A stretch of 64,000 bases of DNA, taken from an uncultured Candidatus Saccharibacteria bacterium (GTDB taxonomy: Bacteria > Patescibacteriota > Minisyncoccia > Phycocordibacterales > EsbW-18). The stretch spans positions 185,727-249,726 of the forward strand of contig CAYUSN010000001.1 of NCBI GenBank assembly GCA_964447415.1, in the 5' to 3' direction. Each line of letters starts with the position of its first letter. Position 1 is the stretch's first letter. Shown in pieces: positions 2,800 to 59,227 of this stretch. Position numbers and translations under genes: made by a program. The notes below the pieces were generated by a model. It was not told the DNA's origin, searched no databases, and saw only the letters and a list, made by a program, of their open reading frames with translations.

Positions 2800-3060
2800 A
2801 TGTTCCAAACCATCCTGTTGTGGGTAGGTGGGCTCGGCATCGGCATCTTCGCGTGGCTTCTGATGGAGCTGTACACCCCAGACTGGGTTTCCGACCGTGT
2901 GCTCGCAATCATCGCGGTCATCGTCTGGGTCGTGGTGGTGTGGTTCCAGCAGACCTCGGGAGCTCCACTCGGCGGATTCCTCGTGGTCTCCGGCATCTGC
3001 TGGTTCCTCGACCTGCTCGCGGGACTTTCGATATTTGTCATCGTCGGGGGCGATGACTAA
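2800..3060 (+). CDS. Small integral membrane protein (2-3 TM), hypothetical
   Basis: 86-aa ORF, GGAGGGA SD 6 nt upstream of ATG, hydrophobic segments; followed by hairpin terminator 3078-3113. Confidence 0.45.
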   Translation: MFQTILLWVGGLGIGIFAWLLMELYTPDWVSDRVLAIIAVIVWVVVVWFQQTSGAPLGGFLVVSGICWFLDLLAGLSIFVIVGGDD

Positions 3061-3158
3061 CCAGCGCAGTCCGCGTGCCGCGCCCGCCTTCGTACGAAGG
3101 CGGGCGCGTTTCATTTTCTCTTTATTCTTTTCGGTGCTCCCTATATACTGTACGGACT

Positions 3159-5069
3159 ATGACGGATTCTCCCCGCAAAAGAGGGCCCGGACAGGGCATG
3201 CCGAAAATACCGCTTACGCCGAAGCGTTCATTTTGGACGAATGTCGGCTTCACTATTCTTCTGTTTTTACTTCTGTCGCTTCTGTACTCGGGCTTTTCAG
3301 ATATACAAAAGTCGGAAGAAATTCCCGTGTCACGCCTTGCCGCTGATGTGGTTGCGGGTACGGTGACGACAATTACCGTGCGCGGAGACAAGCTTGAAGT
3401 TACGTATACCGATGAGACGGTAAAACTTTCACAGAAAGAAACAGACGTATCGCTTGCCGAGACGCTTGCTTCATACGGTGTGACGCAGGAACAACTCGCA
3501 AGCACGTCTATTGCGATACAAAGCGAATCAGGGTTCTGGTATTGGATGCTTAATCTCGCGCCGATTATTATTCCGGTGCTGTTTATTGTATTTCTCATCT
3601 GGATGCTCTCACGGCAGGTAAAAGGTGCGGGTATGCAGGCGCTGAACTTCGGACAGTCGCGTGCGCGGTTCTTTGACCCGAAGGATAAACAAAAAGTGAC
3701 GTTCAAAGACGTTGCGGGTGTCAAAGAAGCGAAAGAAGAACTGCTTGAAATCGTGGACTTCCTCAAAAATCCGAAAAAGTTTCTCAAAATCGGCGCGCAG
3801 ATTCCGAAGGGCGTGCTGTTGATGGGTTCTCCGGGGACGGGGAAGACCCTGTTGGCGCGCGCGGTTGCAGGCGAAGCCAATGTGCCGTTTTTCTCCATCT
3901 CAGGTTCTGAGTTTGTGGAGATGTTTGTCGGTGTGGGCGCGTCGCGCGTGCGCGACTTGTTTCAGACGGTCAAAAAGGCCGCGCCCGCCATCATTTTTAT
4001 AGACGAGATTGACGCGGTCGGTCGCGTGCGCGGTGCGGGACTGGGAGGCGGCAACGACGAGCGCGAACAGACACTCAACCAGATTCTTGTGGAGATGGAC
4101 GGGTTTGAACCGCATCAGGAAGTCATTGTGATGGCGGCGACAAACCGTCCCGATGTGCTGGACCCGGCGCTGTTGCGCCCCGGACGCTTTGACCGGCGCG
4201 TACGCTTGGATTTGCCCGACCGCGCGGACCGCGAGGCGATTCTTGCCGTGCACTCAAAAGAAAAACCGCTCGCCGAAGACGTGAATCTCAAAGTGGTTGC
4301 GGAGCGTACGCCCGGATTCTCAGGGGCTGACCTGCAGTCGCTTACCAATGAAGCGGCGATTTTGGCGGCACGCGAAAACCGCAGTAAGGTGTCGCAATTT
4401 GATTTGGTGCGCTCCATTGAAAAAGTAATGCTCGGACCGGAACGCAGAAGCCACATTCTCTCTGAACGCGAGAAAAAAATCACTGCATACCACGAAGCGG
4501 GACATGCACTCGTTGCATCCGTCCTGCCGAATGCCGACCCGATACATAAAGTATCCATCATCGCGCGCGGCCACGCCGGCGGCTACACGCTCTCGTTGCC
4601 GCTTGAAGAGAAGCGTCTGCTTTCCAAAAAAGAATTCGTCGATCGTTTGGCGATGATTCTTGGCGGATACGCTGCTGAGCAGGAAATTTTCGGCGATGTG
4701 ACAACGGGTCCGTCCAATGATTTACAGGTAGCAAGTGCTCTTGCGCGCGACATGGTTGCTCGCTACGGCATGTCGAAAAAAGTCGGGCCGGTGGCGTTCC
4801 ATGATGACGAAGTACACGCGGCTGCAGGCGGTATGATTGTAGAGGGCAAGGAGTACTCGGAGAAAGTCGCGGCTCTTATTGACGAAGAGGTCCGTGAGTT
4901 TGTGGACACCGCGCTTTCGGAGGCGACGGCAGTTCTCAAAAAACACCGTCCGGCGCTCGAGGCGATTGTGGCGCACTTGCTTGAGAAAGAAACCATCGAG
5001 CAAATCGAGTTTGAGGCGCTTTTGCGCGCGCACGGGATTGCCGTGAAAAGCGTGGAGAAGAAGGTATAA
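3159..5069 (+). CDS. ftsH: ATP-dependent zinc metalloprotease FtsH
   Basis: N-terminal TM helices, AAA+ Walker A GSPGTGKT, Walker [12 protein letters not shown], zinc motif HEAGHAL; start moved to MTDSPRKRG (ORF-track start overlaps upstream terminator hairpin). Confidence 0.9.
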
Positions 5070-7347: not shown

Positions 7348-7352
7348 ATATG

Positions 7353-7424
7353 TGGGCATGCTAGGATTCGAACCTAGAACCGGCCGTGTATAAGACGGCT
7401 GCTCTACCGTTGAGCTACATGCCC
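7353..7424 (-). tRNA. tRNA with anticodon UAU (AUA-decoding isoleucine-type tRNA)
   Basis: Manual fold of reverse strand: acceptor GGGCATG/CATGCCC, D-arm GCTC-AACGGTA-GAGC, anticodon stem GCCGT/ACGGC with loop CTTATAC (U33-UAU-A37), T-arm CTAGG-TTCGAAT-CCTAG, discriminator A; CCA not encoded. Confidence 0.65.
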
Positions 7425-7747: not shown

Positions 7748-8290
7748 ATGAACGTTCCATTACAATGGCAAAAAGGACTCCGGGACGCCCTCGTCCGAGC
7801 CGGGCAGGGAGATGAAGGCGCGTATCGTGCGGTGTATGACCACCTCATTGACCGCGTGTTTACCTTTGTCCGAGCCCGAGCCCGTTCACGTGAGGAAGCA
7901 ATCGACATCGTTCAAGATGTGTTTGTTGACCTCTGGGGGGCACTGCCGAATTTCCGGTATATGTCAGATGCGCATTTTTACAGTTTCGTTTTTACTATTG
8001 CGAAACGAAAGCTCATCCGGCACTACAACACGCGTACGCACGATTCACTCGATGATATCGATATACACGTTCATCCGAGTGTTGATGCGGACGTGCGCGA
8101 CCCGGACGGCGTGCGTGTGCTAGTAGCACAACTGCCTGAAAAATACCGCGACGTGGTGGAATTGCGTTACTGGTCAGGTCTCTCGTTTGCCGAAATCGGG
8201 CAACAGTTGGGACTTACCGAGAACAACGCGAAGGTTCGCCATCACCGTGCTATGAAGGAATTGGAACGTCTTATACACAACCATGCGTAA
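7748..8290 (+). CDS. ECF-type RNA polymerase sigma factor (sigma-70 regions 2 and 4)
   Basis: Region 2 (IDIVQDVFVDLW) and region 4 HTH (LSFAEIGQQLGLTENNAKVRHHRAMKEL); stop overlaps start of downstream membrane protein. Confidence 0.8.
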   Translation: MNVPLQWQKGLRDALVRAGQGDEGAYRAVYDHLIDRVFTFVRARARSREEAIDIVQDVFVDLWGALPNFRYMSDAHFYSFVFTIAKRKLIRHYNTRTHDSLDDIDIHVHPSVDADVRDPDGVRVLVAQLPEKYRDVVELRYWSGLSFAEIGQQLGLTENNAKVRHHRAMKELERLIHNHA

Positions 8291-9653
8291 CGAACGCACC
8301 ACAGCAGAAAACAGTCTCGAAAAAATCTCCGTAGAACGTCTCTCCGGAGAAGAGCGGGAGCACCTGTGGAGCTCCGTTACAACGGCGCACGCGCGTACCC
8401 CGCGCGTCATCCCATCCCCGTACAGCGGATGGATTATCAGCAGAGTTACTCATTCATATTCTATGATTACAGCAGCAATTGCACTTATGCTCGCGCTTTC
8501 AGCGGGAGCAACCGTAGTCGCCGCGGACGATTCCCGTCCCGGTGACGCATTATTCGCTATCGACCGCGCAACGGAAAATATTCGTATTGTGTTTGCGGGC
8601 GACGACAAAAAAGATGAACTCCGTGTCCGTTTTGCAGAAGAACGGGCGGCGGAAGTTGAATCCATTATTGATGAAGAAGGGGAGCGCGTGCGGCTCTCCA
8701 TGGAGGTTCGGGCAAAATCCTCCGGTGATGCTGCGCCCGAAGCGGCGCTGATGGCGGTTTCCTCAGATGACAGCGATGATACATCTGGCGACAATGATGA
8801 TCGCGACGACTCAGATGACGATGGCGATTCAGATGATGACGGCAACGAGCGCATTGCAAACGGTCTCTCGGTTGCAATCGGCTATCTCACGGAAGTATCA
8901 GCGGAGCTTGAAGCAAAAGGAAACATACAGGCAAAAGAGTCGGTTGACGCGGTTATTGCGCGCCTGAACTCAAAAATCGGTGAGATACCGGAAGAACTCC
9001 GTGTTCGTCTGCGGCTCGACAACGACGGTGATGACGACAAGATTCGTGTTCGCGTACGCACCGAAGGAGAAGGTGATGATGACGACGACGTCGAGGTTCG
9101 CGGAGACGGCGTACGGACGAAGGTGGAGTTCAGGAACGGTGAAATCAGAATTGAAAGCAGGATGGATGACGATTCAGACGATGACTCAGATGATGACGAT
9201 TCCTCAAGTGCCGAACTTGAAATTGAAGCGGACGTGTTCACCGACAAGACAATCGTCAAAGTTGAACGCAACGGTATTAAAGAACTCTTTACCACGACGG
9301 CAAAAACTCGCGCAGAGGTTGTGGCGGCAATTGCCGTGAAGTTCGGTATGACCGAAGCAGAAGTTGATGCGGTGCTTGATTTTGAAATTGAAAATCGCGC
9401 AAGTGTCCAAAATGATCTGTTCTTCTCCGGTTCAAGCGAAAGCGGTTCCGACGACAACAATACCGATGATTCTGAGGGAAGCAAGAGCGGCTCGGGGAGC
9501 GGACTTGGAGGCGGTCTTCTCGGAGGATTGCTCGGTGATGATTCAGATGACGATTCGGATGACGATGACGACTCAGATGATGATTCCGACGATGATGATG
9601 ACGATGATGACGATTTGGATGACGACGATGATGATGAAGAAGACGACGACTAA
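8283..9653 (+). CDS. Anti-sigma-factor-like single-pass membrane protein with extremely acidic poly-Asp/Ser extracytoplasmic domain
   Basis: Translationally coupled to the ECF sigma gene (ATGCGTAA overlap). Charged N-terminus, TM helix ITAAIALMLALSAGATVVAA, then repeated DDSDDD tracts and C-terminal run DDDSDDDDDDDDDLDDDDDDEEDDD. Confidence 0.5.
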   Translation: MRNERTTAENSLEKISVERLSGEEREHLWSSVTTAHARTPRVIPSPYSGWIISRVTHSYSMITAAIALMLALSAGATVVAADDSRPGDALFAIDRATENIRIVFAGDDKKDELRVRFAEERAAEVESIIDEEGERVRLSMEVRAKSSGDAAPEAALMAVSSDDSDDTSGDNDDRDDSDDDGDSDDDGNERIANGLSVAIGYLTEVSAELEAKGNIQAKESVDAVIARLNSKIGEIPEELRVRLRLDNDGDDDKIRVRVRTEGEGDDDDDVEVRGDGVRTKVEFRNGEIRIESRMDDDSDDDSDDDDSSSAELEIEADVFTDKTIVKVERNGIKELFTTTAKTRAEVVAAIAVKFGMTEAEVDAVLDFEIENRASVQNDLFFSGSSESGSDDNNTDDSEGSKSGSGSGLGGGLLGGLLGDDSDDDSDDDDDSDDDSDDDDDDDDDLDDDDDDEEDDD

Positions 9654-13331: not shown

Positions 13332-13543
13332 AAAAAAGTCGTGCGATGGCCACCGCTGTCGCACGCACAATCAGAGTTAACCGGATAGCAGCCGGAGCAC
13401 TCTGATTAACCCGTCTATGAGAGACAGACCGTAGTACAGTCTGTCTCATCCAAGACAAAATTAAGAACGGAGAAAAAAGCTAATCACATTTTTTCTTTTG
13501 TTCTGCTCAACTAAGTGAAGCATTTATGTTTCACTTTATATGT

Positions 13544-15196
<1,653 letters not shown>

Positions 15197-15365
15197 AGTC
15201 AAATGACAATCGGTATTTGTCTCTCAAGGACAATACTCTAGGCGGTCGATATCGTGCACTGCAATTGAGTGCATGATGGATGCGGCACAGCATCCTTAAA
15301 ACCGTGCCGGGCATCCGGGAAAGACCGGAAAAATGAGCAGAACAAAAGAAAGAACGTGATATAAA

Positions 15366-15406: not shown

Positions 15407-16573
15407 TTAGAGTTCGTCGAGCGCGTCTTCGGCAAGTTCCTCCGCCTCTTGTGCCAGGTCAATCGCTTCGTCGTAATCTTCATCGTCGAACGCATCCCAC
15501 GCGTCGGCAACCAAGTCCTCCGCCTCATCAAGCAGGTCTTCAGCGTCGGATGTGTCGCCGTTTGTGTCATCAACCTCATCCCAGGCATCATCAATTGCGT
15601 CTTCCGCGTCGGCAATTGCGTCTTCCGCGTCTCCCTCATCCCCCCTTCGGTGGCTTCTCGGATTTATTTCATCAACGGCCTCGTCCGCGAGATCCTGTGC
15701 TTCTTCCGCAAGATCAATCGCATCGTCATAGTTGCCGTCATCAAACTCATCCCATGCTTCATCAAGCAGATCTTGTGCTTCATCAAGTAGATCCTGTGCG
15801 TCATCAACATCATCACCGTCATCTTCCGCGTCGTCTATTTCATCTTGCGCATCATCAATCGCATCTTCTGCTTCGTCCAGCGCATCCTCTGCCTCTTCAT
15901 CGCCACCGCCGAGATCATCGATAATATCCTGTGCGTCATCAAGCGCACGCTCTCCCTTTTTGAGTGCCTCTTCGTAATCCTCTTCGATAAACGCGTACAG
16001 AGCGTCGAGCAGACGTTCTTTGGCGTCATCAAGGTCATTCTCAAAGCTTGAGGTGGTTTCACCGTTGTCTTGTGCGTCTTCTATCTCGTCCTCCGCATCA
16101 TCGATTGCATTAATTGCATCTTGCAGAATATTCCGTGCGTCCTCTTCATCGGATGAGTTATTGTCATCATCGTCATCATCACTGTCATCATCATCAGAAT
16201 CCGTCTGCGGCGGAGCAATTACCGGTGTAGGCGCCGCGCCGCTCATGAGTTCAAGATATTTTCTCTGTGATACGGGTCCGAAATATCCTGTCGCCGGCAT
16301 AATGCCGTTCACGGTCTGCCATGCCGCAACCGCAATTTGTGTTTTTTCACGGAAGAGCGATGTTTCTTGCCCCGGCGCGCCGGGACCATCCTGTGCAATC
16401 GTGATGCCCGCTGAGTTGAGGTACCTCTGCAGACAACGGATGTCTTCTCCTTGCATGCCGAGCTCCAAGTCGCGGTCAAAGGTGCACGAAACGACCGCCT
16501 GTGCAGACGGAGCAAATGACAAAAACGCTGCAGTGATAATACCCGCTAGCAATAGTGTTGTGTGTGTGCGCAT
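15407..16573 (-). CDS. Secreted peptidoglycan-binding-domain protein with long acidic Asp/Glu/Ala repeat C-terminal region
   Basis: Signal peptide MRTHTTLLLAGIITAAFLSFAPSAQA; PG_binding_1-like segment (LELGMQGEDIRCLQRYLNSAG...TGYFGPVSQRKYLEL); ~250 aa of repeats such as DDAQDLLDEAEDLVADAWDEFDD; start moved to MRTHTT. Confidence 0.6.
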   Translation of the reverse strand: MRTHTTLLLAGIITAAFLSFAPSAQAVVSCTFDRDLELGMQGEDIRCLQRYLNSAGITIAQDGPGAPGQETSLFREKTQIAVAAWQTVNGIMPATGYFGPVSQRKYLELMSGAAPTPVIAPPQTDSDDDDSDDDDDDNNSSDEEDARNILQDAINAIDDAEDEIEDAQDNGETTSSFENDLDDAKERLLDALYAFIEEDYEEALKKGERALDDAQDIIDDLGGGDEEAEDALDEAEDAIDDAQDEIDDAEDDGDDVDDAQDLLDEAQDLLDEAWDEFDDGNYDDAIDLAEEAQDLADEAVDEINPRSHRRGDEGDAEDAIADAEDAIDDAWDEVDDTNGDTSDAEDLLDEAEDLVADAWDAFDDEDYDEAIDLAQEAEELAEDALDEL

Positions 16574-16772
16574 AGCAAAAAAGTTATGTGGTAAATGACC
16601 TGATTGTTCCTGCACAAAGAGGAATGTAATCGGTGCTTACAGTATATCAAGTGGCTCGTCATGCTGAGGTGCCGGGCGGGGGATAATGAGCGCCCGCAAA
16701 GGTATTGGAAACCACATTCTTGACAAATTCATATAATATGATGTATACTGTACATCAGAAAAGGAGGTTGCC

Positions 16773-17381: not shown

Positions 17382-17455
17382 GCGCGTGTAGCTCAGCTGG
17401 TTAGAGCACGTCACTGATAATGACGAGGCCGAAGGTTCGAGTCCTTCCACGCGCA
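17382..17455 (+). tRNA. tRNA-Ile (anticodon GAU)
   Basis: Cloverleaf: GCGCGTG/CACGCGC acceptor, D-arm GCTC-AGCTGGTTA-GAGC, anticodon loop CTGATAA, T-arm GAAGG-TTCGAGT-CCTTC, discriminator A. Confidence 0.85.
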
Positions 17456-17479
17456 CAAAACGAAGTTTGAGTATAAGAA

Positions 17480-55199: not shown

Positions 55200-56192
55200 A
55201 TGGCATTCATCGATGAACTACATTTACACCTGAAGGCGGGCCGCGGCGGCAACGGCGTGGTGCGCTGGCTGCATCTTAAAGGAAAAGACCTGTCCGGCGC
55301 TGCAGGAGGAAACGGCGGACGCGGCGGCGACGTGGTGGCTGAAGGTATCCGCGATATCGGCGCGTTGCTGCGGTATCGTGATCAAAACCACTACGCGGCG
55401 GGCGACGGAGCGCCCGGAGGCAGCCGAAGCAAGGAGGGAAGAAACGGCAAAGATTTTGTATTTAAATTTCCGCTCGGCACGGTAATTTCGCGCACACGAC
55501 TCGGCGAGCGCTGGGAGATTCTTGAAGAAGGACAACGCGAAGTGCTGTTGAAAGGCGGCAACGGCGGATACGGAAACGAGCACTTCAAGGGTTCGCGAAA
55601 CGTCACGCCGATGCAGTCGACGAAAGGAAAGCCCGGAGACGAAGATGATTTTGAAATCGAACTGCAGTTGGTTGTTGATGCGGGACTCATCGGTATGCCG
55701 AATGCGGGGAAGTCGAGTCTGCTCAACGCGCTTACCGGCGCGCATGCAAAAGTCGGCGCGTATGAGTTTACGACGCTCAACCCGAACCTCGGGGTTATAT
55801 ACGGATACGTACTTGCCGATATTCCGGGACTTATTGAGGGTGCGGCGGAAGGACGCGGACTCGGGCATAAATTTTTGCGTCACATCAAGCGCACAAAAAT
55901 GCTCGTCCATTGTGTGTCATTTGAAAATGAAGATTTGGCAGGAGCGTACGCAACAGTGAGAAAGGAACTCTCCAAATACTCCGGAGAGTTGGCGGATAAG
56001 AGCGAGATTGTGTTGCTCACAAAATCAGACATTCTACAACCAGACGAAGTTCCTCAAAAAATAAAGGAATTTTCTGCACAAAGTGGTGTTTCTGAAGACA
56101 TGATTTTTACCGTTTCCATATACGACGATGTGTCGCTGAAGGCATTTTCCGACGCTCTGACAAAGAAAATGGGCGAATTAAAGGAGTGCTAG
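55200..56192 (+). CDS. obg: GTPase Obg
   Basis: Glycine-rich Obg fold N-domain (GGNGGRGGDVV), G1 GMPNAGKSSL, G3 DIPG, G4 TKSD. Confidence 0.9.
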   Translation: MAFIDELHLHLKAGRGGNGVVRWLHLKGKDLSGAAGGNGGRGGDVVAEGIRDIGALLRYRDQNHYAAGDGAPGGSRSKEGRNGKDFVFKFPLGTVISRTRLGERWEILEEGQREVLLKGGNGGYGNEHFKGSRNVTPMQSTKGKPGDEDDFEIELQLVVDAGLIGMPNAGKSSLLNALTGAHAKVGAYEFTTLNPNLGVIYGYVLADIPGLIEGAAEGRGLGHKFLRHIKRTKMLVHCVSFENEDLAGAYATVRKELSKYSGELADKSEIVLLTKSDILQPDEVPQKIKEFSAQSGVSEDMIFTVSIYDDVSLKAFSDALTKKMGELKEC

Positions 56193-56391
56193 TACACGGG
56201 TGTTAGCACGTGGGGTCTGACCCAACACTATACTATTGACACATCACATAAAAAGGTGTATTATATGCATGAAAGTTCTTTGAAAGTTCAGTTGCAAATT
56301 TGACCGTGGTTTTGAGCGCCTTTCAGGCCTTCAAAACCACGGTCAACGAAGACCGATGGTTACTCCGGGCAACAAAGCCCAAGGAGGTAAC

Positions 56392-57006
56392 ATGAGTTTC
56401 TCATTTCTGCTTTTCCTGTTTCTGATCCTGTTGTTGGTGGGAGTGGTCGGGACGACTTTCCTCATTTATTGTGGGGGGTCCAGCGAGCAATCCAAACAGC
56501 AGGATGAGACCTTCAAGGAGTTCACGGTGTCCAATGCCGCCACAACCAAGGAGGACTTCTTCGTCGCGTTCCCCTCGTTGAGAAGGTATCGGCACAAACC
56601 AGAATACGACAACCTAGAATTTTATCTCTGCGATTTATCGAAAGTGAGTCCCTTTATCAGTTTTAATGGAATTTCTCCCAGAGATGCTAAGGGGTTGGTT
56701 GAGCAGAAGGGATTCAGGAACGCAACACCAGAAGAATTCGTCTACTATGTCAAGAAACAAGCCCTTCTTGGGGAGAAGGGGGAGAGCTTCGGTTCTAGCG
56801 TGGTTGCGTTGGGGAAGTATGCCAATCGCACTACGGACTACCACGACACGGGGATTCTCATCTACAGCTGCTTCTATCCAGGAAGATGCTTTATCCAGAA
56901 CTGGGGCTGTAGCATGAATTTCATCCTTTACGGAGGTTTTTCCGTAGACAACACCTTTTTTCTTGGTGTGCGGGAAAAGAAGTCTAAGGAGGAATCATGT
57001 TCCTGA
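56392..57006 (+). CDS. Membrane-anchored hypothetical protein (GC-rich ORFan)
   Basis: AAGGAGG SD; N-terminal TM FLLFLFLILLLVGVVGTTFLIY; start at M13 of ORF 56356..57006. Confidence 0.4.
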   Translation: MSFSFLLFLFLILLLVGVVGTTFLIYCGGSSEQSKQQDETFKEFTVSNAATTKEDFFVAFPSLRRYRHKPEYDNLEFYLCDLSKVSPFISFNGISPRDAKGLVEQKGFRNATPEEFVYYVKKQALLGEKGESFGSSVVALGKYANRTTDYHDTGILIYSCFYPGRCFIQNWGCSMNFILYGGFSVDNTFFLGVREKKSKEESCS

Positions 57007-57563
57007 TCAAGGACGTTCCCGTCGGTCGCCTCAACGCGCTGGTCAAGAAGATCGGCGGGTTGCAGGTGATGGATGGCATTCTCGACGGCACGCTGAAGCT
57101 CACCGTCGAAAAGATCGTCGAGCCCACACCAGCCGACCTCGCTGTTTTCTTCACTACTCGGCCTGGCCTCTTGGTCACCGACGGGTTCTGGCAGCAGATT
57201 CTTGCTCTGGCGCTTGCGATGCCCGAGACGGCACCGGCCTCAGTCGGAGAGCCGTACGACCTTCGGAAGGACATGTACGATACCGAGATTCGTCAGAAAC
57301 TCGGTGAGAACCACATCTTCGAGAATGCCCGCGCGTTTTGTCGCTACCTCCAGAGGGCTCTCTCCGCGCAGTTGGGAGGTACCGAGGGGGACCTGCGCAC
57401 CTTTGGCCACGAGAACATCTTCTATGTTCGTGGCGGGGACGGGGCTGTCTTCGTGGTCTCCGTCAAGTGGAATGCCAATGGCCGAAATTGGTCCATCAGC
57501 GCCGATCATCTGCTCGACGCTGACCGGTGGTACCACGGTACTCGGGCTTTCCCTCGCAACTGA
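56997..57563 (+). CDS. Hypothetical protein (GC-rich ORFan, 188 aa)
   Basis: AAGGAGGA SD; overlaps upstream stop; high GC3; followed by terminator (ccccgcgtggcttttattggcacgcgggggcgtttt, ~57620-57655). Confidence 0.4.
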   Translation: MFLIKDVPVGRLNALVKKIGGLQVMDGILDGTLKLTVEKIVEPTPADLAVFFTTRPGLLVTDGFWQQILALALAMPETAPASVGEPYDLRKDMYDTEIRQKLGENHIFENARAFCRYLQRALSAQLGGTEGDLRTFGHENIFYVRGGDGAVFVVSVKWNANGRNWSISADHLLDADRWYHGTRAFPRN

Positions 57564-57734
57564 TCCTTGAACCCCTGGCATCTTGGCGCTTGCGTCTTGA
57601 TACCTTGGAAATCTTTCGCCCCCGCGTGGCTTTTATTGGCACGCGGGGGCGTTTTCGTATCTGACTTTAAATACAATTCAAAAATAAAGGTTCGACAGGT
57701 ATAATGATTTTGGAGGCTCATCCTTCAAAAATAT

Positions 57735-57785
57735 CATGACATCCTACATACCGACAATTGGACTTGAAATTTTCACCCAGCACTA
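57735..57785 (+). pseudogene. Relic/duplicate of the gatB N-terminus (MTSYIPTIGLEIFTQH*), divergent at synonymous sites from the functional start 90 nt downstream
   Basis: Manual translation: MTSYIPTIGLEI vs functional MTEYKPTIGLEI; nucleotide identity low despite peptide conservation; terminates inside hairpin E. Confidence 0.3.
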
Positions 57786-57804
57786 AAGCGAAGCTTAGTG
57801 CTGG
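57775..57804. promoter_or_regulatory. Palindromic element E (cccagcactaaagc-gaa-gcttagtgctggg) 23 nt upstream of gatB
   Basis: Inverted repeat with CCAGCAC core read directly. Confidence 0.45.
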
Positions 57805-57826
57805 GCAGGCGCAGTAAACCATCATC

Positions 57827-59227
57827 ATGACAGAATATAAACCTACAATAGGGCTCGAGATACACGCGGAGTTGAAAACGCAGACGAAAATGTTCTGCGA
57901 CTCTAAGAATGACCCGGACGAGAAGCGTCCGAACTGGAACGTGTGTCCGGTGTGCATGGCGCACCCCGGCACGCTCCCCGTCATCAACCGCGAGGCGGTG
58001 AAGCACGTGCTCAAAGTCGGCGTTGCCGTCGGCGGTACCATTGCCGACTACACGGAATTTGACCGAAAAAACTATTTTTACCCCGACATTCCAAAAGGGT
58101 ACCAAATCAGTCAGTATGCCTTTCCGCTTGTAACAAAAGGAGAGCTACACGGTATTGCACTTACACGCATTCATCTTGAGGAAGATACCGCGCGCTCTCA
58201 GCACGAGGGTGACCACTCGCTCGTTGATTTTAACCGTGCAGGCGTGCCGCTGATGGAATTGGTTACCGAACCGGTTATCAAGAGTGCAAAAGAGGCGGGG
58301 GATTTCGCACGTGAGCTGCAACTTTTATTGCGGTATCTCGGCGTGTCGGATGCGGACATGGAGAAAGGACATTTGCGCGTGGAGGTGAATATCTCTGTTT
58401 CAAAAGACGGCACACTTGGAACAAAGACGGAAATAAAAAATATCAACTCGTTCCGTGCGGCGGAAAAGGCGATTGAATTTGAAACACAACGGCAGACGGA
58501 GGCGCTTGAAGCGGGAGAGAAAATAGTGCAGGAGACACGCGGATGGGATGATGCGAAAGGAGAAACGTTTTCTCAGCGCGAGAAAGAATCGTCGCACGAT
58601 TACCGTTATTTTCCGGAACCCGATTTACCGAAGCTAAAAATCTCAGAGATTCCGGAATTTTCCGCCGAGGCGCTTAAAAAAGAATTACCGGAACTGCCGT
58701 GGCAGAAACGGGAACGGTATCTTGCACTCGGACTGAAAAAAGAGGACGCGAATATGTTTGTGGGCGACCCCGCATACGGAAACTTTTTTGAACAGGTTGC
58801 GGGAGAGTTGGGCGGTGACCCGAAAAAGATTCTCCTTGCGACTAATTATATTGCAGCTGACCTCGCGGGACTTTTGAAAGGAAACGAGATTTCGTTGTCC
58901 GCGAAATATTTTGCCGAACTCATCGGAATGCTTTCAGACGGTAGCGTATCTTCGCGCGGAGGAAAAGATATTCTTGCACTCATGATTAAAAAAGATGCCT
59001 CCCCGAAAAAGATTGCGGAGAAAGAGGGGTTGTTGCAGCAAAGTGACGAAGGTGCCATCGGTACAATTGTTGATGATGTCATCGCGCAAAACGAGAGTGT
59101 AGTTGCAGAATATAAAAAAGGAAAAGAAGCATCACTGCAGTTTCTTGTGGGGCAGGGCATGAAGCTTTCGAAAGGTTCGGCAAATCCGGGGGTGCTTGCA
59201 AAACTCCTCAAAGAAAAACTTTCATAA
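57827..59227 (+). CDS. gatB: Aspartyl/glutamyl-tRNA(Asn/Gln) amidotransferase subunit B
   Basis: N-terminal PTIGLEIHAELKT, GatB catalytic domain and C-terminal GatB/YqeY domain; terminator (cgccgccaaaagtcttggcggcggttt) follows. Confidence 0.9.
   Translation: MTEYKPTIGLEIHAELKTQTKMFCDSKNDPDEKRPNWNVCPVCMAHPGTLPVINREAVKHVLKVGVAVGGTIADYTEFDRKNYFYPDIPKGYQISQYAFPLVTKGELHGIALTRIHLEEDTARSQHEGDHSLVDFNRAGVPLMELVTEPVIKSAKEAGDFARELQLLLRYLGVSDADMEKGHLRVEVNISVSKDGTLGTKTEIKNINSFRAAEKAIEFETQRQTEALEAGEKIVQETRGWDDAKGETFSQREKESSHDYRYFPEPDLPKLKISEIPEFSAEALKKELPELPWQKRERYLALGLKKEDANMFVGDPAYGNFFEQVAGELGGDPKKILLATNYIAADLAGLLKGNEISLSAKYFAELIGMLSDGSVSSRGGKDILALMIKKDASPKKIAEKEGLLQQSDEGAIGTIVDDVIAQNESVVAEYKKGKEASLQFLVGQGMKLSKGSANPGVLAKLLKEKLS

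Follow-up and report, generated by a model that had tools for sequence, protein, structure and literature searches.

A short upstream reading frame that copies the GatB N-terminus probably opens a conserved, translationally coupled gatB leader in Patescibacteria

The subject of this article is the DNA immediately upstream of gatB in an uncultured Candidatus Saccharibacteria bacterium. It lies within a stretch of 64,000 nucleotides (nt) of contig CAYUSN010000001.1, which we call the window and whose features are all given on its forward strand. Just before the gene is a mini-open reading frame (mini-ORF) that spells out the beginning of GatB a second time. The original prediction took this for a relic, perhaps a gene end displaced when a neighbouring islet of two foreign genes arrived. 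Our analysis points elsewhere. The supposed relic is probably the start of a short upstream ORF (uORF) belonging to a conserved gatB leader cassette, one in which translation of the leader and of gatB are coupled. The same architecture is present at 14 further distinct gatB loci in Patescibacteria, giving 15 leaders in total. The host of the window is itself a Patescibacterium, the best representative genomes having 64% GatB identity.

The mini-ORF extends from 57736 to 57786. Its ATG (57736-57738) is followed by ATGACATCCTACATACCGACAATTGGACTTGAAATT TTCACCCAGCAC and a TAA stop codon, translating as MTSYIPTIGLEIFTQH, and codons 1-12 (57736-57771) are the ones that repeat the start of GatB. The gene itself has its ATG at 57827, 91 nt 3' of the first; the original prediction was a nucleotide out on both counts (57735 and 90 nt), though correct in what it saw. 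From there gatB opens MTEYKPTIGLEIH, begins with ATGA and continues to 59227, encoding a protein of 466 residues with GatB_N and GatB_Yqey domains. In a repeat search the top direct repeat of the region pairs 57733-57770 with 57824-57861 (38 nt, 74% identity). Ten of 12 residues are the same in mini-ORF and gene, and 7 of ~6.5 synonymous sites have changed. Nearly all silent positions differ, where the original prediction had said most, and with silent sites saturated this is not a recent tandem duplication. A hairpin, P2 (57776-57805, palindrome E of the original prediction), separates the two starts. It was found in the repeat search as a perfect 11-bp palindrome (57776-57786/57795-57805), which folding extends to 13 bp around a GAA loop, CCCAGCACUAA(A)GC-GAA-GCUUAGUGCUGGG, at -19.1 kcal/mol (z -6.6). 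The palindrome had been described as sitting exactly between the copies. It does lie there, but not cleanly, because it overlaps the end of the mini-ORF, the stop codon (57784-57786) falling inside its 5' arm. Folding suggests a further helix, P1, in which CUUG at 57763-57766, within the Leu and Glu codons of the mini-ORF, would pair with CAGG at 57806-57809. Beyond the hairpin comes the motif CAGGCGCAG (57806-57814; family consensus CARGYRC-N-G, then AAY), 21 nt before the gatB AUG. A sigma-70-like promoter for leader and gene (TTCAAA-17-TATAAT, 57677-57705) implies a 5' untranslated region (UTR) of ~24 nt, within which there is a small hairpin at 57708-57730.

We excluded a chance origin of the N-terminal copy by scanning 864 kb on both strands, comprising the window and all non-viral loci, for genes whose N-terminus is repeated at no fewer than 8 of 11 residues within 220 nt upstream; the matches were gatB leaders and one low-complexity serine run only. 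That run is a serine/alanine-rich ORF with repeated SSASS-type peptides, downstream of the 16S gene in the window (~15855-16600, start 16065). The window has just two sequences that resemble the GatB N-terminus, those at 57736 and 57827, and the islet lies upstream of both.

Across the family the cassette has a fixed order: promoter, mini-ORF, a CAY/CCCC junction, hairpin, GGGG-CARGYRC-N-G-AAY and the gatB AUG. In its first 11-15 codons the mini-ORF is a paralogue of the GatB N-terminus (..Y-x-P-T-I-G-L-E-I-H), the hairpin has a stem of 12-13 bp, the inner part of which covaries, and the gatB AUG follows 11-23 nt further 3'. The point of insertion is the same in all leaders and coincides with the most conserved motif of GatB. 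Among 80 fetched gatB loci, L010 (Nomurabacteria) and L014 carry a second GatB-like N-terminus 85-88 nt upstream; between these two and the window the flanks are conserved as GARATY-CAYCCC[stem]GGGRCAGGCGCWG-AAC..ATG and the hairpin sequences differ. A metagenome scan, the pattern for which comprised the 3' motif and the true gatB codons only, found 12 loci, nine of them distinct, and all 12 have the N-terminal copy and hairpin upstream. In the Nomurabacteria clade, leader-less GatBs start MEKKYYPT or MANKYYPT, as mini-ORFs do, and the true starts behind a leader read M[TN]KYYPT, one residue shorter. The presence or absence of a leader can be predicted from the protein N-terminus, correctly for three of three presences and two of two absences. 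The leaders predicted in this way bear the motif variants CAAGCAC and CAGGTGC, so a scan for the exact motif undercounts the family.

Fourteen of the leaders score 34-87 bits with a covariance model made from the family. In 516 kb its matches are confined to gatB upstream regions, apart from weaker ones (14-20 bits) where it recognizes the coding part of a true N-terminus. The 3' motif is found once in the 64-kb window, and a loose scan for it in viral contigs gave 95 matches, roughly the chance expectation. No Rfam family matches at gathering score (a permissive search of 57560-57900 returned snoRNA-type noise only, E > 3), and our literature searches found no description of a self-copying uORF leader. 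The distribution within Patescibacteria (Paceibacteria/Parcubacteria) is patchy. On the GatB tree leaders appear at no fewer than five places, with the window nested among leader-less relatives, and there is no fused protein with a double N-terminus among the window's 120 closest GatB relatives. Leaders lie directly 3' of obg, and with no islet, at L178, L187 and L199; elsewhere their upstream neighbours include SecA, DHFR, Tmk, an ABC ATPase, a divergent transposase and a PaaX-like gene. The leader is therefore not tied to an island. The original prediction had allowed that a conserved upstream mini-ORF in relatives lacking any islet would imply a regulatory uORF instead of a relic, and a conserved, apparently translated leader of that kind is what these loci contain.

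The mini-ORF evolves like coding sequence. Entropy at the three codon positions is 0.25/0.07/1.55 in mini-ORFs versus 0.20/0.07/1.26 in true starts. The ratio of nonsynonymous to synonymous differences (pN/pS) is 0.19 among mini-ORFs versus 0.16 among true N-termini, and comparison of mini-ORF with its own gene gives a pS of 0.97 and a pN of 0.10. The stop codon of the uORF falls within 8 nt of the gatB start in 14 of the 15 leaders, at +1 (forming ATGA) in eight, at +5 or +8 in five and at -7 in one, the window alone having it at -43. This stop/start overlap has been kept through three different reading frames across the conserved motif, and gatB begins ATGA at 15 of 15 leader loci versus ~25-35% of relatives. 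Being read in different frames, the 3' motif is conserved as nucleic acid.

The RNA structure is under constraint too. Of 11 leaders folded, nine have a stable hairpin (z -3.2 to -7.1), and at least five different inner stems occur. In an alignment of 14 leaders 92% of cells are paired versus 81% after shuffling (none of 500 shuffles reaching the observed value) and 37-45% with slid partners, and eight pairs have changed on both sides. Even the basal pair covaries, from C-G to U-A in L010, which has a CAT His codon. In clade B the hairpin is near-invariant while about half of the flanking silent sites have changed, so its primary sequence is also constrained. Support for P1, in which G-CUUG of the mini-ORF would pair with CARGY of the motif, comes from the Leu codon, which is CTT in 9 of 15 mini-ORFs and in none of 15 true starts (p = 0.0007). 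Measured in 11 leaders, the AUG is 13-23 nt 3' of the stem, the foot of which is 13-14 nt before the AUG in six. Selection for silent-site difference between the two copies of a genome was considered and dropped (0.24 identical codons versus 0.31 in cross pairs, p = 0.17).

These features belong to bacteria that do without a Shine-Dalgarno (SD) system. The 16S rRNA gene of the window (13537-15204) ends ...GGATTTAGTCAAAT, with no CCUCC anti-SD, the region near 15165-15204 reading ...GGAAGCTGGTCGTGGATTTAGTCAAAT. Only 4 of 46 long ORFs in a curated set for the window have an SD-like motif (7 of 63 unfiltered ORFs), related loci have 0-1 such genes each, and no SD precedes gatB in the window. Loss of the anti-SD has been reported for about half of Parcubacteria (PMC9297842). 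In at least 10 of the 46 long ORFs the ATG follows a -10 box by 5-10 nt, a leaderless layout. The five closest relatives of the window all have TATACT or TATAAT 6-9 nt before their gatB ATG, implying a leaderless gatB mRNA, and 8 of 12 leaders have a -10 box 6-10 nt before the AUG of the uORF. Sharing this layout with leader-less relatives, the mini-ORF is a native-type leaderless gatB start. It is the downstream gatB start that is the derived copy, one residue shorter in clade B and always ATGA. As asides on the translation apparatus, the 16S Rfam match is 1668 nt long against a model of 1533 nt, suggesting an insertion, and the window encodes a tRNA-Ile with anticodon TAT (7352-7424), reading AUA directly, in addition to tRNA-Ile(GAT) (17382-17456).

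How might such a leader work? Ribosomes would load on the 5'-proximal AUG of the mini-ORF, usually leaderless and of the native gatB type, and translate through the hairpin, unwinding P1 and P2. Termination would follow at a stop codon overlapping or adjoining the gatB AUG (ATGA), and the ribosomes would re-initiate at gatB, the synthesis of which would thereby be coupled to, and gated by, translation of the mini-ORF. A distance of 13-14 nt before an AUG is about that of the trailing edge of a ribosome sitting on it. With the foot of the stem at about this point, the hairpin could, speculatively, hinder independent entry and refold behind the terminating ribosome.

In the window itself the cassette is, judged by its sequence, complete and one indel short of a canonical leader. 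A TT insertion between the Ile codon and CAC (57772-57773), common to L179 and L183, and a run of three Cs (57776-57778) where other leaders have four together put the mini-ORF out of register with the canonical frame. That frame is intact: from CAC at 57774 it reads HPALKRSLVLGRRSKPSS and ends at 57830 with a TGA (57828-57830) overlapping the gatB ATG (57827-57829). Since the out-of-register mini-ORF terminates within the hairpin, coupling to gatB has probably been weakened or lost in the window.

Several points weigh against a coupled leader and temper our confidence. The window copy does not have the stop/start overlap by which coupling is recognized, its stop being 43 nt before the gatB AUG, nor is its start leaderless, given the ~24-nt 5' UTR. 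The survey is small and partly ascertained through the motif, and the alignment used for covariation was fitted to the covariance model. Hairpins at L184 and L185 are weak and that of L198 is degenerate. P1 has changed on one side only, weaker support than P2 enjoys, and fails in three or four of the 15 leaders. Tethering of the terminating ribosome in the manner of a termination upstream ribosome-binding site (TURBS) had to be discarded as well: CAGGCGCAG matches the 16S of the window at 7 of 9 positions at best, and 79% of shuffled motifs do equally well. We show the anatomy, the selection and the SD-less context; the path of the ribosome, translation of the uORF and re-initiation both, we infer from them. 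Nor does coupling by itself give a reason for the peptide ..TIGLEI(H) to be conserved, since any ORF would serve.

That protein-level conservation is not accounted for by gene conversion, by codon repulsion or by RNA pairing either. Three ideas remain. There may be a nascent-chain effect in cis; there may be a flux of leader-bearing and leader-less alleles in which the mini-ORF is periodically the real N-terminus; or there may be sensing through the Gln and Asn codons read before the stop. Gln (CAG/CAA) and Asn (AAY) codons do come just before the uORF stop in 9 of 15 leaders. We rejected a general sensor based on them, because six of 15 leaders read the motif in other frames and have conserved it nonetheless. 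A broader form, in which the look-alike peptide or the codons act as a sensor, with nascent ..TIGLEIH acting in a ribosome at the base of the hairpin and perhaps helped by the Gln/Asn codons, so as to tune re-initiation at gatB, strikes us as unlikely. If it were true, re-initiation would be tuned to the supply of Gln-tRNAGln/Asn-tRNAAsn or to GatB assembly, and the tRNA-dependent amidotransferase of these SD-less bacteria would have a feedback attenuator in this leader.

The neighbourhood of the window leader has a history of its own. The gap between obg and gatB is 1634 nt in the window versus 15-72 nt in its five closest relatives (L190-L194, 80-92% GatB identity), which retain the gene order holin-MYG1-obg-gatB-GAPDH-rpiB. 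Aligning this interval, as the original prediction had proposed, shows islet, mini-ORF and hairpin to be jointly absent from all five, so it is the lineage of the window that gained an insert of ~1.6 kb. One relative, L193, has a gene for a 23S rRNA intervening-sequence protein (PF05635) between MYG1 and obg (2613-2951). The left edge of the insert is likely marked by promoter-like signals at 56229-56264, shortly 3' of the obg stop codon (56190-56192): TATACT (56229-56234), the -10 box found before the gatB ATG in leader-less relatives, and a strong promoter directed into the islet (TTGACA-17-TATTAT, 56236-56264). The boundary itself is indistinct, ATCACATAA (56243-56251) weakly resembling ATGACAGAA. 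We rejected a second decayed gatB start at this end of the islet, since TATACT and ATCACATAA would be all there was of it, which is too weak.

Next comes a long hairpin in the 5' UTR of the islet (56300-56346, 22-nt arms, -33 kcal/mol, z -6.5) and then the islet (56392-57563), consisting of two overlapping ORFs (56392-57006 and 56997-57563) for proteins of 204 or 216 and 188 residues, both orphans. It is clearly foreign. Both ORFs have perfect AAGGAGG SD sites in a host without an anti-SD, the guanine-plus-cytosine (GC) content is higher (58-60% in the second gene), and neither protein has a Pfam, PHROG or PADLOC match. No integrase or recombinase is encoded in the islet, the second protein has two distant homologues only, both on tiny contigs, and no counterpart of the islet is present at any other locus examined, those of the relatives included. 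The islet ends in a hairpin resembling an intrinsic terminator (57617-57658), with a GC-rich 12-bp stem (57617-57628/57640-57651) followed by TTTTCG (-30.6 kcal/mol, z -6.1). Inserts also turn up here in two clade B lineages, where a PaaX_M protein (Cas2-like domain) and a small unknown ORF lie between obg and the leader (L188 1249-2286; L197 1721-2659), marking the obg-gatB interval as a recurrent insertion spot. Among other neighbours of leaders, L186 has a divergent DDE transposase (rve, rve_3; 8256-9329, reverse strand) 81 nt upstream of the leader of the gatB allele it shares with L180, and L179 has a small free-standing GIY-YIG nuclease gene (1309-1581) upstream of secA, 2.8 kb from the leader, to which no link has been established.

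Recombination is the likely source of the window cassette, which would have been acquired with or next to the islet, as the ~1.6-kb insert, from the DNA of a leader-bearing relative. A clear precedent is at hand. L180, which has a leader, and L195, which has none, were compared over 1-1600 and 2880-4480, respectively. From about codon 43 of gatB onward they are identical at 1358 of 1361 nt (99.8%); upstream of it they are unrelated, promoter and neighbouring gene included, the latter being a transposase in one and obg in the other. This is a swap of the 5' cassette by homologous recombination, with the crossover inside gatB. In this light it is plausible that the duplication marks a junction formed by recombination with a homologous segment from a donor, the alternative given in the original prediction. 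Between the gatB of the window and those of L190-L194 no breakpoint is visible at such divergence. The proposal that the relic would lead to the donor lineage did not bear fruit. No donor can be named, the window leader being 58-72% identical to all the others and tied to L179 and L183 only by the TT insertion and a GCGAAGC apex.

Patchiness, a fixed insertion point and recombination invite a rather different account, in which the cassette is selfish. A homing-like mini-cassette, a hairpin element carrying its own start and its own copy of the first 13 gatB codons, would invade gatB at its most conserved site, after the His13 codon, leaving the resident start behind as the mini-ORF. The stop/start overlap would then be compensation that keeps an essential gene expressed, and the mini-ORF would owe its conservation to rapid turnover, gain by recombination and loss by deletion between the copies, not to any function of the peptide. 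The identical insertion point in the most conserved GatB motif of all leaders is as expected, and so is patchiness among near-identical strains, with GatBs 98.8% identical between L180 and L195 and 92% between the window and L190. The mini-ORFs are of the native type (MEKKYYPT, MANKYYPT) and the downstream copies are all derived and shorter (M[TN]KYYPT). The single N-terminus of L195 even looks like a relic, with a CTT Leu codon and 17 of 17 nt in common with the 3' part of the L180 mini-ORF, and the true starts of the window's relatives match its mini-ORF at 23 of 27 nt versus 20 of 27 for its true start. However, no endonuclease or recombinase is associated with the cassette. In clade B the identical-codon fractions are 0.59, 0.47 and 0.52 for downstream copy, mini-ORF and rest of gatB; as diverged as the mini-ORF and the rest of the gene, the downstream copy does not, with the hairpin, form a recently spread unit. 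Saturation at silent sites within genomes likewise speaks against recent local duplication, and a function at the level of the host would lead one to expect the strong conservation seen in the hairpin sequence and the ATGA overlap. We consider a selfish cassette rather unlikely.

The idea that the islet integrated at the 5' end of gatB and supplied a surrogate end, with the mini-ORF a displaced and decaying pseudo-start, finds some support in the window. None of the five closest relatives has islet, mini-ORF or hairpin, the islet is foreign by its SD sites, GC content and orphan proteins, the old -10 box persists beside obg, and the mini-ORF is truncated. It is the rest that does not fit. There is no integrase or other recombinase, no repeat of a gatB start or att core at the left end of the islet, and the copy stands next to the gene, a place that this model reserves for the surrogate end; a displaced end would be found across the islet. 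Mini-ORF and hairpin are also present, with no islet, in 10 or more other lineages, where the stop/start overlap is kept and selection is purifying. These islet-free leaders largely refute this part of the original prediction, which we now think very improbable. Fainter still is the case for programmed bypassing of the T4 gene 60 type, in which ribosomes starting at the mini-ORF would take off from the His codon where the hairpin begins, land on the His of the second copy and make GatB with the upstream N-terminus. It has its attractions: the 5' arm of the hairpin takes in the end of the His codon (CA[C-CCC...]), the gap has a matching His codon (CAY) on either side in 11 of 15 leaders, and protein-level selection on both copies would be explained. 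Yet the take-off codon is followed by CCC and not by a stop, a whole start codon and N-terminus, both conserved, lie in the gap, and 3' of the hairpin three different frames have each been kept such that the uORF stops at the AUG, for which bypassing has no need. Leaders of the TT type (window, L179, L183) would moreover encode Phe for the catalytic His, and L198 has no His codon. We give this reading next to no credence, and return to the coupled leader.

The closest parallels are found in termination-reinitiation coupling at stop/start (ATGA) junctions, short-uORF cases of which include the iraD leader of E. coli (PMC5574718) and the coat-lysis junction of RNA phage GA (PMC9955659; reviewed in PMC12548453). 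There too a short uORF ends at or near the main start, the main ORF has no SD and RNA structure lies upstream. In the gatB leader, by contrast, the uORF copies the N-terminus of the main gene itself, hairpin and motif are inside the uORF, the host has no SD/anti-SD, the uORF is usually leaderless and the window copy has lost the overlap. Mycobacteria offer leaderless short ORFs as first cistrons, for example the polycysteine uORF attenuators (bioRxiv 10.1101/834739). They share with the gatB leader a 5'-terminal leaderless AUG opening a short ORF upstream of an operon gene; unlike them, with their codon runs that sense an amino acid, the gatB leader has no such run and its peptide mimics the downstream protein. 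The leaders of erm, cat and cmlA are classical examples of translation attenuation by leader peptides. These also place a short leader ORF and then a hairpin upstream of the regulated start, but the hairpin of the gatB leader does not sequester the gatB start, which is 11-23 nt beyond the stem, no alternative pairings were seen in folding, and there is no known inducer.

Mobile elements provide the other set of comparisons. The e14 element and phage 21 integrate in the 3' end of E. coli icd and bring a replacement end, and islands targeting tRNA genes behave similarly. The likeness lies in a duplicated gene end, with mainly silent differences, beside foreign DNA that relatives do not have. Unlike those elements, the gatB case has no integrase or att repeats, its copy is on the wrong side of the islet, and its duplication is conserved across genera without an island and is apparently translated. 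Hairpins are inserted in coding sequences in the T4 gene 60 bypass, in mitochondrial byp elements and in Rickettsia palindromic elements. As in all three, a hairpin is inserted at a fixed site in an essential or conserved coding sequence; gatB, however, owes its expression to a complete second start with its N-terminus and not to hopping or in-frame read-through. Whereas palindromic elements such as REP, MITE and RPE are multicopy, the gatB leader is single-copy and specific to gatB. In its workings, then, the leader is like known uORFs and stop/start coupling. As far as Rfam and literature searches show, a uORF that copies its own gene, the conserved hairpin and motif inside it, and a setting both leaderless and SD-less are new.

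There is a practical warning here for annotation: apparent relics beside islands need not be integration scars. The swap between L180 and L195 also documents that, in these organisms, 5' gene cassettes are exchanged by recombination at the level of alleles. The question the leader raises is whether its peptide is sensed or whether the cassette is caught in a flux of gain and loss. Patescibacteria are uncultured and have reduced ribosomes, and the gatB leader offers a concrete, conserved and testable case of how translation of an internal gene starts in them. It appears to hand ribosomes on from a leaderless start, by way of a structured element, to an essential gene.

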